From assembly GCA_010405405.1 (NCBI GenBank), contig MU004233.1, forward strand, positions 375,067 to 439,066: DNA of 64,000 nucleotides, read 5' to 3'. This DNA comes from Microthyrium microscopicum. Taxonomy: Eukaryota. The notes under the pieces were generated by a model. That model made no database searches, was not told the DNA's origin, and was given only the letters and a program-made list of their open reading frames with translations. Within the stretch, counting starts at the first letter, position 1, and each line of letters opens with the position of its first letter. Below are positions 52,831 to 63,943 of the stretch, in pieces. Position numbers and translations under genes: made by a program.

Positions 52831-55800
52831 TTAAAAATCTCCACTAAGGAGATGTTCTACTGCGCGCTGTACTTTGCCACCACTTTTGCGCAAGGCCTTG
52901 ACATTATGCTCCGATTCATAGAAGCCCATGTCGTTGAGTTGTCGCAGCTGGTCAACGTATGGTTCCTCTGAAGCTTGTCTACTGTGATATGGCAGGTTTG
53001 TGATGCCTCTACCTCTTGATTCCTCCGGGGCTGAAGCGAAATCTTCATCAGCAATTTCGACTGGGTAGCGACCTTCTTGTGTCTCACTGAACCAGGGAGA
53101 TGTAATCCGTCCCTGGCTATCAATGAACGGGTTGGTAGGTCTAACTTCATCGTCACCCTGCCTTTCACCAGTCCGGCTAGCAATTTGTTTCTGGTACTCC
53201 GAATCATCTAGGAGGGCTGGAGGGATAAGAGGCTCATGTTGTATTCTGAGAGACTCCAAATCACTTGCCCACCCCTTACTATCGTGGGTCGCCCGTGATT
53301 TATTCTTCGCTGTCTTTGATTGTTCTGGTAAGGATTCAAACTCTTCATCTTCTTCACCGTCATCGTTGATGGGCCGTCTGTAACGCTTGTGTGTGGAGGA
53401 AGGAAACTTCCCACTGGAAGGTGATGTTCTCGAATCTGTTCCTCGACGTTGTAGCCCCCTGATCCTCGCTCGTTCTATTCTGTTTACCGCCTGGAGGGCA
53501 ACATCATCCTCAAGCTCTTTTGTAGACGACCAATTAGCAATAGCATCATGTGTCATAGCCTCATCGGGTAAAATGGTAAAGTTGCCGCTTTTTACGGATG
53601 ATCCGCTCGGTTCGCTCAGCAACCATTCCAAGAATATAGTTTTTAGTCGGTTGCCATGTTCATCGACAAGGCTTATATCGTTGCGTTTCAGAATACTATC
53701 TGACACATAACGCTGCGGCTTTTCCCATGATAGACCAGAGACCAAATCGAATTCGTGGGTGTCAGGTAAATTAATTACGACATCAAATGATTTCGCCTGT
53801 AGGGAATTAGATCATGTCGTGTTATATGTGATGTAGGATGGATACTTACATTTCTGTCACCGATCATCTGGGGCTCTTTTTCACTTTCGCTGGAGTCGTT
53901 TTCAACATAAATGTTGCTTGACCCGATCGCACAGTCGTACTCCATGTCGGAAGCATCAATAATAACAAAACGAGTCCTTCGTAGTTTAGCTTTTGTACCT
54001 GACCTTTTTATCCACTCTAAAGCGATGGTCTCTCGTATCTCTGTGTCAGCAGTTAGGTTCTGGTCTTCCATAACTCTTCTCGAAATGCAACTGTTAACAT
54101 TTCTACATTTCCTAGCTGTCAGGGCACAGTACTGGCGTGTCGTGGGATTGAGAACAAGAATATCAAAAGGCTTTTCCTGAGGGGAGCATTAATTAGAGTC
54201 CACTGGAAAAGACTTTGCGAAAATTGATGTGACTTACTTCGGGCTTGAAGGTTGGTACGTATAAGCCCGCACCTAAAAAGGCATGATCTTCTTCTCCGCT
54301 CTCACTCGAATTGCTTTCTGCGCTTTTCCAGCCCGGGTCGGTTTCTCGTGGGATGGGTGCTGGGAAAAGCGGTGATGGCGGTACGGAGGGATTGGACGGT
54401 GTACCTTCAGATTTTTCTGATTCGAAAGATAATTGTGCTGATGCGGTCGTGTTATCTGATTGCGACGGAAAGCGTCTAGGGCTGTCAATAAACGTTTTGC
54501 TACTGTCAATACCAAATCGGCCTAAATCGCTGGCATGAGATTGGTGTTAGACAGTCCCATCGGACTTGATGGGAGCCATCGAATGCTATGGGAGCCAGCA
54601 AATGCTTCCCATTTCGGTATTTTATGTTGGAATATGATGGAGGTGCATACGAATAGATTAACTTACCCATCGCTAGACTCATCTGCAAAGTAATCGTTCT
54701 CTGCAAAATAGTCTCTACCTGACAAATTGGCGGCATCGCGATTCTCGTCGTAAATGGCTGGCGGATTCAACTCCCACGTTGGTGATAGATGGATGGCTGG
54801 TGTTTTCAAGTCCCAGGAGAATGATGGAGGTATAGTTGTCTCACTCTCGCCTTCTGGACCAACACATTCCAAGGTGTCGACCCACTCGAGGACTCTGTCA
54901 TTGTCGTTGATAGCGATATTGTATGTTCCAATCGGTTTATCAAGCCGTAGTATGACAGGCTTAGGCCATGGCAGCGAACGAAGGGAGAAATCGTGGATAT
55001 GTTTGAAAACGTGCTCGAGTAGCTCTGGTGAATCTGGAGGGCCGGAGGAATCACAAAGGGGGCACTTTGTCAAGCCCATAGTTTGGACCGCGAATTGTGA
55101 TAAAATCGTTGCCAGATCGAGGGCTTCTCCTTCGGAATGAATCTCTTGAAGGTGATTCATCAAAGCTGAGGGCTCTTGAAAAATTGGGGGATCGTCATGA
55201 CAGTATAAACACTGCCATCGTGGAGGATGATCGTTCATAAAATGCTCATTCCACTCTTTCTGGGTGACGAAAAGCTTGAAAGGCGTTGGGCAGTCATCTA
55301 AAATACAGGTATAAGGACACAGATCGTTAGCAATGTGTCTCCTGGGTTATGTTAGAAAAATCTGAAAAGATTTGTGTCAATGTAAAGTATATGGAGAAAT
55401 GTTTCTTACCTCCACTGAGTAGAGTTGTTGGCTTCCTCAAAAGGTATGGCCTGGCAACAGCACGGGCATTTAAACATTTTTTGATCAGCTTTCGCTGTCT
55501 TTGGATTGGGATACTGAGCTGATCCTGTAATTGCTGTTATACGAGTCTGGGGCGATTTAATGTGCTGTCGAAGACCTTGAAAAGCGGTCTCAGGAACAGA
55601 AGCTGATACTCCTGACGCCGTAAATGCCGCACTTTTGGCCAAAACGGAAGGCTTGCTGTTGGTTTTTATTTGCGTTTCCCGACGAGTGACTGAACCTGAA
55701 GTTGTGCCCCTTGACTGAGTGCTCTTCGAGGCCCCAGGATGTTTAATACCGGTTGGAATTGGTGCCACAGGCAGATTTAACGATCTATCTCTCAATTGAT

Positions 55801-56623
55801 ATGAATGACGTTGGGCCTGTGTATGGTCAGCATAAGTCTGAGCCATCAGGGCAACTTACCTCCAAGAACCGGTGACGCCGTCTCAAATTCGCTTCAACTA
55901 AGCGTTTGCCAGGACTACAGGCTGTCAATGAGAGATTCATGATGAGATTGTCCGCACCCGTGATAATGAAAGGAATATATGGGCGGATAACATACCCTTC
56001 TAACTCAACGTCGGCAAAGTGATTCGGATCATAGGTTTCTCTGACGTTCCGGTCTGGCTTTGATATGATGAGGCAGTTGAGATGTGCTCTCAATTCTCTA
56101 TGTTGATTCGGGTTAAACGAGTTATCGGCCTTCTGCAAACGGCTCTTCTTCCCACTCTGTCGAATTGCAACTCCAATCGAAGCAAGGTTTTTCATCATTG
56201 AATCTACATTCTCCATTGATTCTGTGGAGCCATCGAATTCTGTCAGGAATTCCTGAAGAAGTTGCAGTAAGCCTCTGACAAGATTGGTATCATTCGGTCG
56301 CTGTTGGAACCTCTGGTCTAGTGATGCCTAGAAGTGTTCGTTAGTCAGGGCGTTCATTTTGGAGGCTTTGGCATTAATAATATCAATATGTGTTGAGCTC
56401 TTGCAAAACTCTACATGATATTCATGAGCCATGCAGGTTTTGATATAGACTTTACCTTATCACGGGCAACAGCGCCGACACTGTCAGCCCATAACTTCAA
56501 ATCTGCCAATCGATTTTGGAGGTGTGTCTTTTGAGCAGTGTCGAGGGCATCATTTATACACTGACCAAACTGGGCTATACAAGATCTCGTCAGATCTGAC
56601 GTCGATTTTTTTGAGTTATCCAT
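52831..56623 (-). CDS. Multi-exon protein: N-terminal helical domain, C2H2 zinc-finger cluster, two pseudo-retropepsin-like repeats, C-terminal UBA domain
   Basis: About 8 exons joined in frame via GT-AG introns (e.g. 56455-56328, 55409-55342, 54666-54530, 54237-54177, 53848-53797); RLADLKLW...ASLD; CPCC...RH...DLCPYTC; CLYC...HLQEIH; CPLC...HVFKH...SLPW; UBA QLRQLNDMGFYESEHNVKALRKSGGKVQRAVEHLL. Confidence 0.8.
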
Positions 56624-62333: not shown

Positions 62334-63448
62334 GATTATGCTTGCTGGAAAATGTAGATCAATTCAAAGAGCAAGCTGTAAGGTAAAAATCAGAGAGCAA
62401 TATTAGTACGTGCTAGCGTTGGGCATGAGGTTACGCGGAAATGGCGCATTATTCTGCAGACGATATCGCTGGGCTGTAGCTGCATGCAAGCAAGCTATCA
62501 AGATTAAAACTACCTGTTACTAGTAGCTCGAATTGAAGTTCAATTTTCTATTCCATAAAGCCCATAACTTTTGGGGAACAGTACCTTCTTTCCGACGTAC
62601 TCACTATCTGAATTTATCTAACCTCGTTGTATCAGTCGAATTCGAATACGAATTTGAAGAGAGAGATTTTGAGTGATATATAATCCCGTCTTTTACAGAG
62701 CGTGATGGGTATTTGTCCAGGTCGTGTCTGAACTTGAGTGAGACGAATAGACGTTACAAGATACTAGTAGATTCAAGTTATTGTAGAGCATCGTCACCTC
62801 GCAACTAATAATCGATCGCACTCTTTACCTTGTCTTACTATTCCAAACGCGCGCTATGGCAACACTGGAGCGAACTTCGCTTCCCGATGCTCAACGGCAT
62901 ATTTTTCGAAGGACATCCTATCTGCGCGCCAAGTTCAATTTGTAAATCGAAACAACGATGCAGCGAAGTGGTGAAGAACTTTTAACGACGTGCAGATGGC
63001 TGTGCCTCCTGTTGGAAGATTTCTTCTCGTGTATCTCGTGGTAACGAGTTTAGGAGATCAAGATCAAGCTGCGAAGATCACGGCTGTTCTGGAGAAGAAG
63101 ATGCTGCTTACCATAGCGTGGAGGGGGGAGTTATAGAAATCATCATATGATGATTTGGTACACAAATCTACAATTTCTTCCCCTTTGCCGATTAAAGTTA
63201 TGCAGACATTGTTGTTACGATGATGAAAGCATAATTGAGAAGAATAAAAACGATCATAACATGCTAAAGTTATTCGTTCTTGCCTAAGATTCCCCTATGA
63301 TCATTTGCAAAACTCCCCCTCGCGCGCTATTTATGGTAGGCAGCTGGACCGAACATGCTGGCCCAAGTCTATTTCGCAGATGCAGCCACAGCTGGTGCGA
63401 CTTCAGCATCAGGTTCTGAAGATCCAGTAGCATGTTCGGTCCAGCTGC

Positions 63449-63943
63449 CTAAGCCAAAGGAGTCTGATAAGCCGAACTTGCAGATGCTTGCATGAATTTA
63501 GTGCCAACAAGAATTCCTGGTGCGTGTTCAGCATTGGGATCTGAATATCCAATGCCAAAGGAGTCTGCCAAGCCGAATCTGCCATGTCTTTGTATGAAAT
63601 TAGTACCAACAACAATTCCGACCAAAGGTATGCTGTGTGAAGTAGTGAAGCATTTAATAAACAGAGATTTGGGACTGTGCCCAGTTAAAGGCAGTCCGAC
63701 TTCACCGGCTGGTGGAGATGTGTCCGAGTTTGAGTCCTTGAACCACCAGTCTGCTGCAACATCAATGATGGGCCACTCGAGGCTTTTCGCTAATGAGGGT
63801 GATATCCAATTATACCTGCTGCCAGAATCAAATCGGAGTTCTACAGGTATTATTTGGCCCGATTTTCGATTGATTGTTCTCATATCGGTGGTGAAAGTTG
63901 GTGTCGTGCTTCGAGGCCTTGGTGTCTCTCGAGCTGGTGGCAA
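63449..63943 (-). CDS. Retropepsin-like aspartic protease domain ORF (probably the 3' part of a gene starting beyond the window; C-terminus rearranged)
   Basis: LRFDSGSRYNWIS catalytic-type D-S-G motif and later GIVVGTNF hydrophobic-Gly motif; internal tandem duplication and frameshift near the end. Confidence 0.6.
   Translation of the reverse strand: MPPARETPRPRSTTPTFTTDMRTINRKSGQIIPVELRFDSGSRYNWISPSLAKSLEWPIIDVAADWWFKDSNSDTSPPAGEVGLPLTGHSPKSLFIKCFTTSHSIPLVGIVVGTNFIQRHGRFGLADSFGIGYSDPNAEHAPGILVGTKFMQASASSAYQTPLA

Follow-up and report, generated by a model that had tools for sequence, protein, structure and literature searches.

A het-Q1/het-Q2-like gasdermin and S8 protease gene pair in the dothideomycete Microthyrium microscopicum and the genes that flank it

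The described systems closest to the locus considered here are HET-Q1/HET-Q2 of Podospora anserina and RCD-1 of Neurospora crassa. HET-Q1 is a gasdermin of about 280 amino acids whose C-terminus is a short inhibitory tail and whose cleavage motif has a hydrophobic residue before phenylalanine, and HET-Q2 is a cytoplasmic protease of the S8 family that lacks an Inhibitor_I9 propeptide (PMC8851545). Cleavage of HET-Q1 is reported to occur after F238, with L237 needed as well. The two genes are idiomorphs at one locus, and their products meet after cell fusion. RCD-1 belongs to the same gasdermin family and, as one review describes it, causes death when two divergent alleles are co-expressed, without a protease. 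In the wider survey of Clavé et al. 2022, an S8 gene was reported within 10 kb for 63% of 1,884 fungal gasdermins, long extra termini were found in 93% of HET-Q2-like proteins, and a truncated protease domain was seen to cleave the neighbouring gasdermin (PMC8851545). A 2025 review adds that fusion partners, either repeats or domains predicted to be kinase-like, are frequent in the proteases of fungal gasdermins, and treats the trigger of these pathways as an open question. Here, a gasdermin gene and an S8 protease gene of this kind were analysed in Microthyrium microscopicum, within a stretch of 64,000 nucleotides (assembly GCA_010405405.1, contig MU004233.1, positions 375,067 to 439,066 of the forward strand) that is referred to below as the window. 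The pair is flanked by a zinc-finger (ZnF) gene on one side and, on the other, by an open reading frame (ORF) with a retropepsin-like D-S-G motif. A first-pass annotation of the sequence had grouped all four genes into one cell-death islet and regarded the combination as undescribed.

On the evidence set out below, the functional unit is read as a two-gene het-Q1/het-Q2-like cell-death cluster, to which we assign a probability of roughly 0.7, and the flanking genes as neighbours without a shown role. All four genes were recovered at the positions first given for them, as spliced or open-frame models, with the D-S-G ORF running off the window. The core of the locus is already known, because Dataset S1 of Clavé et al. 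2022 lists exactly the pair KAF2670813.1/KAF2670812.1 as a het-Q1/het-Q2-like cluster (PMC8851545). It is thus catalogued by accession among about 1,400 fungal gasdermin/protease pairs, with no difference at the level of the pair from the clusters in that listing, and the supposed novelty of the combination falls away for the gasdermin and the protease.

Gene models were built by hand from the window sequence, using canonical GT-AG introns and fungal branch sites (Table 1). The spliced gasdermin is identical to protein P0001, NCBI BT63DRAFT_423112 (100% identity, 284 amino acids). An exhaustive HMMER search with this protein returned 376 relatives at E ≤ 0.001, from which a profile of 91 sequences, designated A2, was assembled; it comprised P0001, 82 near-full-length representatives of 255-310 amino acids and 8 close homologues, and left out fragments and fused forms. 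Against the PDB, the best matches of profile A2 were RCD-1-1 (8jyz_A, E 3.6e-18) and RCD-1-2 (E 4.5e-17), with the HET-Q1 pore (9uv9_A, E 4.8e-12) and bacterial gasdermins (E 1.7e-6) also recovered. Searched against the PDB as a single sequence, whole or in pieces, the gasdermin gave nothing useful, and the 91-sequence profile alone succeeded. A Foldseek search with a low-confidence AlphaFold (AF2) model of the protein placed gasdermin pores at all of ranks 1-7, with probability 1.00 and E values of 1.7e-7 to 2.7e-5. Because profile A2 matches both RCD-1 and HET-Q1, though Pfam and the single-sequence PDB search stayed silent, the 284-amino acid protein is by profile homology and fold match a genuine fungal gasdermin, in agreement with the first-pass annotation.

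A motif of the type K-A-A-F-L is found in the family, and the Microthyrium protein has K-S-A-F229 followed by M-T-G at this place. Within the 91-member alignment, F229 is conserved in 69 sequences, A228 in 67 and K226 in 48. By analogy with L237/F238 of HET-Q1, the protein would most likely be cut after F229. The 55 residues behind F229 are acidic (17 Asp/Glu vs 4 Lys/Arg), and this tail is 9-10 residues longer than that of most close homologues, the extra residues following a conserved C-I-S-F end.

For the protease, Pfam assigned exon 4 to Peptidase_S8 with E 7.1e-14, and the same exon matched subtilisin BPN' in the PDB with E 9.5e-6. The catalytic residues D613 (59482-59484), H651 and S810 (60129-60131) and the oxyanion residue N739 are intact, and are kept in two homologues, P0008 and P0009, as counted by hand on the alignment. 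About 600 residues precede the S8 domain, made up of a helical part and a region assigned to DUF7580 (PF24476), for which E was 2.5e-8 on the exon-3 ORF and 0.0036 on the exon-2 ORF. When P0008 and P0009 were used as tblastn queries, homology extended over all four exons. The start of the model agrees with the sequence start of KAF2670812.1 in Dataset S2 of Clavé et al., where the protein is listed with a 604-amino acid unannotated N-terminal extension (PMC8851545). No Inhibitor_I9 propeptide was found by Pfam on the protease ORFs, from which a cytosolic location is predicted. Our literature search found no paper that names DUF7580.

The 3' ends of the protease and gasdermin genes converge, as first described, with 463 bp between the stop codons, well under 10 kb. 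The pairing recurs elsewhere: P0008 of Truncatella angustata (1185 amino acids) and P0009 of Chaetothyriales sp. CBS 134916 (1198 amino acids) each consist, in one model, of DUF7580 and S8 followed by a whole gasdermin, and P0008 retains the gasdermin's own start methionine inside the model. These models are probably merged neighbouring genes; it is possible that they are true protease-gasdermin fusions. The combination of DUF7580-S8 with a gasdermin is thus kept in two further fungal classes besides that of Microthyrium, a dothideomycete. Gene order differs between them, the two genes being convergent in Microthyrium, whereas in Truncatella and Chaetothyriales S8 is followed by the gasdermin on one strand. 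The motifs W-T-S-E-D-I-W-F, S-F-P-F-G and L-L-E-I-G from the N-terminal region of the protease also recur in other HET-Q2-like proteins of Dataset S2, in which, within the first 400 characters of each cell, 'SFPFG' occurs 13 times and 'LLEIG' 30 times.

Two features set the Microthyrium pair apart from its Podospora counterpart. HET-Q2, at 366 amino acids, is essentially a bare protease domain, whereas the Microthyrium protease adds an N-terminal extension of about 600 residues; and the Podospora proteins are brought together by cell fusion, whereas the Microthyrium genes lie in cis. The first-pass annotation had reasoned from the latter that the protease has to be kept inactive, and we judge that reasoning to be right. 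In the mechanism that we propose, the gasdermin would be an inactive precursor in which the acidic tail restrains a pore-forming part of about 229 N-terminal residues. The 905-amino acid protease, predicted to be cytoplasmic, would have its C-terminal S8 domain kept off by its own N-terminal region, helical part and DUF7580 together, until the detection of some signal. The activated protease would then cut the gasdermin, most likely between F229 and M-T-G, and the freed N-terminal part would oligomerise and form membrane pores, leading to cell death.

Several results weigh against this reading. Pfam assigned no family to the gasdermin or to its close homologues. The AF2 model, made from an 11-sequence alignment, had a mean predicted local distance difference test (pLDDT) score of 50.2, and its TM-scores against the gasdermin pores were just 0.25-0.47. 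A kinase-like nature of DUF7580 found no backing in hhalign, where a 3-sequence query alignment matched kinase domains with a probability of 0.9% over an 18-column motif. Cleavage and its position, toxicity, the trigger and the hold of the N-terminal region on the protease are all inferred. In both convergent genes, the final codons carry sequence like that of miniature inverted-repeat transposable elements (MITEs), which could have changed the inhibitory tail of the gasdermin. Lastly, the ZnF module of the flanking gene appears, from supplementary sequence, to be fused in Fusarium oxysporum to a kinase-S8 protein clustered with a gasdermin, and a role for the neighbour is possible.

Table 1. 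Positions of the gasdermin, its protease and the surrounding features in the window
Feature	Position	Strand	Remarks
Gasdermin gene (het-Q1/rcd-1 family)	60883..62333	minus	284-amino acid spliced product
Gasdermin exons	62333-62103, 61732-61464, 61237-60886	minus	stop 60883-60885; GT-AG introns
HET-Q2-like protease gene	57310..60419	plus	905-amino acid open-frame model; ATG 57310
Protease exons	57310-57977, 58159-58527, 58683-59712, 59769-60419	plus	open frame
DUF7580 region of protease	58163..59058	plus	exons 2-3, across intron 58528-58682
Peptidase_S8 catalytic domain	59455..60290 (approximate)	plus	intron 59713-59768 inside
Divergent intergenic region, ZnF ATG to protease ATG	56624..57309		686 bp
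ZnF gene	52831..56623	minus	extended 1073-amino acid model; ATG 56623, stop 52831-52833
ZnF exons	56623-56456, 56327-55996, 55914-55860, 55816-55410, 55341-54667, 54529-54238, 54176-53850, 53796-52834	minus	frame open throughout
N-terminal helical region and C2H2 (zf-C2H2_AcuF) module of ZnF gene	54238..56623	minus	residues 1 to ~590; 58 homologues
ZnF exon 6, candidate Asp-less retropepsin-like domain	53850..54176	minus	N-P-T at D-S/T-G position
C-terminal UBA domain of ZnF gene	52849..52953	minus	Pfam PF00627
3' part of gene with retropepsin-like D-S-G domain	63449..64000	minus	ORF runs off window
MITE-like element	60679..60901		~220 nt; 52-nt terminal inverted repeats (90% complementary); on gasdermin stop

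The ZnF gene lies head to head with the protease gene, and the divergent region of about 690 bp first noted between them measures 686 bp from ATG to ATG. Its public protein, P0164, has 546 amino acids, is equal to the first 546 residues of the longer model and ends at a stop codon that belongs to an unspliced GTAAGT donor. Splicing of the 137-nt intron 4 (54666-54530) and of two short canonical introns opens the frame to 1073 amino acids, with a UBA domain at its end (PF00627, E 1.9e-6, 28 bits vs a cut-off of 22.4). The longer model is favoured because homologues align across the intron 4 junction: 21 of 58 align past residue 555, over the annotated stop, and through an R-F-P-S-Q-S motif. The gene is therefore probably under-annotated. 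C2H2 motifs are legible in its sequence, and the C2H2 core motif is common to many of the 58 homologues, which were found with E values of 1e-61 to 1e-15 and for which BLASTP alignments span residues 1 to about 590. A match to PF26082 was precomputed for P0164, yet the local copy of Pfam returned none; the name zf-C2H2_AcuF for this family is taken from PMC13412767. In the homologues, the module precedes WD40, TPR, ankyrin, kinase, phospholipase C, NACHT-type or HET domains; by hand count, nine have WD40-type repeats, nine a kinase, five TPR and four PF24883; phospholipase C is present in six and HET in one. One homologue, P0197, was confirmed to combine the ZnF module with NPHP3_N and ANK. 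Residues 600-1073, which hold the retropepsin-like stretch and the UBA domain, were matched in 0 of the 58. Directly downstream of the ZnF stop codon, two tandem 45-nt copies that are 96% identical occupy positions 52723-52812.

Could the ZnF protein, expressed from the shared 686-bp region, regulate the protease as a sensor, adaptor or guard, with the retropepsin-like ORF unrelated? The head-to-head arrangement is consistent with such a three-component system, and so is the company that the module keeps, since standing in front of NACHT-ANK, WD40, TPR, ANK and kinase domains is the pattern of fungal proteins resembling nucleotide-binding domain and leucine-rich repeat (NLR) receptors. In the Neurospora crassa pangenome paper, zf-C2H2_AcuF is also placed among highly divergent families, beside HET and ankyrin (PMC13412767). 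The nearest thing to a direct link comes from Dataset S2, in which EWY83163.1 and EWZ33004.1 of Fusarium oxysporum are listed as PKinase plus Peptidase_S8 proteins with a 1139-amino acid N-terminal extension, clustered with the gasdermin EWY83166.1. In the first 400 residues that the dataset displays for these proteins, a helical N-terminus like that of the ZnF gene and the core motif ..QWRKH..DL.PY.C.. could be made out by eye.

That match was judged from the supplement, unscored, and is limited to few entries of Dataset S2 ('WRKHL' 7, 'KPYVC' 9, 'PKinase' 8), both displayed proteins being from F. oxysporum; the canonical motifs 'CPCCC' and 'CPYTC' occur 0 times within the first 400 characters of each cell. 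A module that is fused to so many unrelated domains, phospholipase C and HET among them, makes one more fusion weak evidence, and the tail of the Microthyrium protein is common to none of the 58 homologues. Truncatella, Chaetothyriales sp. CBS 134916, Xylariaceae sp. FL1651 and Hypomontagnella, which have the gasdermin/S8 pairs nearest to this one, contribute none of the 58. The N-termini of the S8 and ZnF proteins showed no similarity to each other (hhalign probability 0.3%), and the protease's own N-terminal residues could supply the regulation. A regulatory ZnF protein is on balance unlikely, and the sensor or guard role that the first-pass annotation had proposed for it is unsupported by the distribution of either its module or its tail.

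Transposon-like sequence is found in and around the pair. The MITE-like copy at 60679-60901 contributes the stop codon of the gasdermin and the 6 codons before it. Gasdermin intron 1 owes its length of 370 nt to another copy within it (61880-62089, 73% identical). Fragments were found at 61314-61405 in gasdermin intron 2, at 60379-60404 in the last codons of the protease and at 54553-54599 in ZnF intron 4, the intron left unspliced in the public model. These sequences may be introner-like elements. The question follows whether transposon insertions have altered the 3' ends and introns of the pair and left it a relic, decaying or silenced, in a system that no longer fires; insertions in the gasdermin introns and on its stop codon, together with the longer tail, would fit this. 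However, none of the three complete reading frames is interrupted, their splice sites are canonical, nothing is lost from the catalytic residues or from the cleavage motif, and the gasdermin extension follows the conserved C-I-S-F end, where other homologues show short extensions too. A relic is for these reasons very unlikely.

The remaining proposals bring in the retropepsin-like stretches. Of the two, the D-S-G ORF has the clearer motifs, D-S-G and G-T-N-F, 74 residues apart by hand count in the translation. Its Pfam match to Asp_protease_2 (E 0.039, 15.1 bits) stays below the cut-off of 24.3. The D-S-G first pointed out is there; a significant profile match to the retroviral-protease (RVP) clan is not. 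The Atlas feature score was 0.95, which serves as a lead only, and the ten best family-bearing matches all fell into one clan. No match was found among PDB sequences, and the single-sequence AF2 model was unusable (pLDDT 38.8), its best Foldseek matches being antibody fragments at E 0.11, with 0 at E ≤ 0.001. A protein search restricted to lengths of 100-321 amino acids gave 192 candidates, none at E ≤ 0.01; because even the ORF's own record was missed, the gene is probably longer than 321 amino acids or unannotated. At the 3' end of the ORF, a direct duplication with 101-nt spacing (63448-63650) covers G-T-N-F...F-G-L-x-D-S-F-G; a one-base shift puts the second copy out of frame, and the ORF ends at a stop codon within this copy.

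The other stretch, exon 6 of the ZnF gene, had been called a pseudo-retropepsin within a ZnF/pseudo-retropepsin/UBA protein. The C2H2 and UBA parts of that description stand; the pseudo-retropepsin has neither a Pfam nor a PDB match, and its Atlas score against RVP clusters, 0.91, is barely above the recognition threshold. From N-P-T to G-S-S-N, 75 residues were counted by hand, against the 74 of the D-S-G ORF. BLASTP between the two stretches showed no similarity (E 16). The evidence for both retropepsin labels is weak. An architecture of UBL, retropepsin-like and UBA domains is that of Ddi1-type proteins. The tail of the ZnF protein resembles it in having a possible retropepsin-like stretch and a C-terminal UBA domain, and differs in that no UBL and no Pfam Asp_protease were detected, in N-P-T standing for D-S/T-G and in the ZnF module of about 590 residues in front.

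Retropepsins work as dimers, each chain giving one Asp. An Asp-less partner could silence an active one, since the dimer needs one Asp from each chain. A larger module can be drawn up in which the ZnF protein binds to the protease or acts as its guard, while the Asp-less domain of the ZnF protein pairs with the D-S-G protein and the UBA domain reads ubiquitin signals; we hold this to be very improbable. On present evidence, the extension of the pair to four genes is unproven and unlikely. We give hardly any credence to a four-gene islet, the reading of the first-pass annotation, with a cascade from retropepsin to S8 to gasdermin, in which the Asp-less domain would serve the D-S-G protein as a decoy or as the inactive half of a dimer: although two retropepsin-like stretches with near-equal motif spacing flank the pair within 11 kb, both are short of Pfam significance and of any PDB sequence match, they are mutually dissimilar, the sole fold model is unusable, the D-S-G gene is incomplete at the window edge and carries an out-of-frame duplication at its 3' end, our literature search returned nothing linking fungal gasdermins to retropepsins, and 'Asp_protease' occurs 0 times in the Clavé datasets, which cover just the protease proteins themselves (PMC8851545).

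Elsewhere in the window, a second gene of cell-death type was found at 24396-26165 on the plus strand, a 589-amino acid ORF with a HET domain (E 8.9e-26) some 31 kb away from the protease gene. Between the two lie housekeeping genes, for DNA polymerase phi, an XPG/FEN1-type nuclease, acyl-CoA dehydrogenase, a GMC oxidoreductase and protein kinases. Over roughly 15 kb (5000-20000), the window is AT-rich, with a GC content of 0.19-0.25 vs 0.44-0.52 elsewhere, and has no ORF of at least 140 amino acids; this block looks like repeats degraded by repeat-induced point mutation.

With the two-gene cluster as the preferred reading, DUF7580 is a recurring partner of gasdermin-activating S8 domains, and the AcuF-type ZnF module resembles in its behaviour those that fungal NLR-like proteins carry at the N-terminus. 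If true, the larger module would tie pyroptosis-like death of a fungus to proteostasis or to ubiquitin stress. The possible presence of an AcuF module inside a gasdermin-clustered protease of Fusarium raises a question of synteny that bears on how these proteases are regulated.

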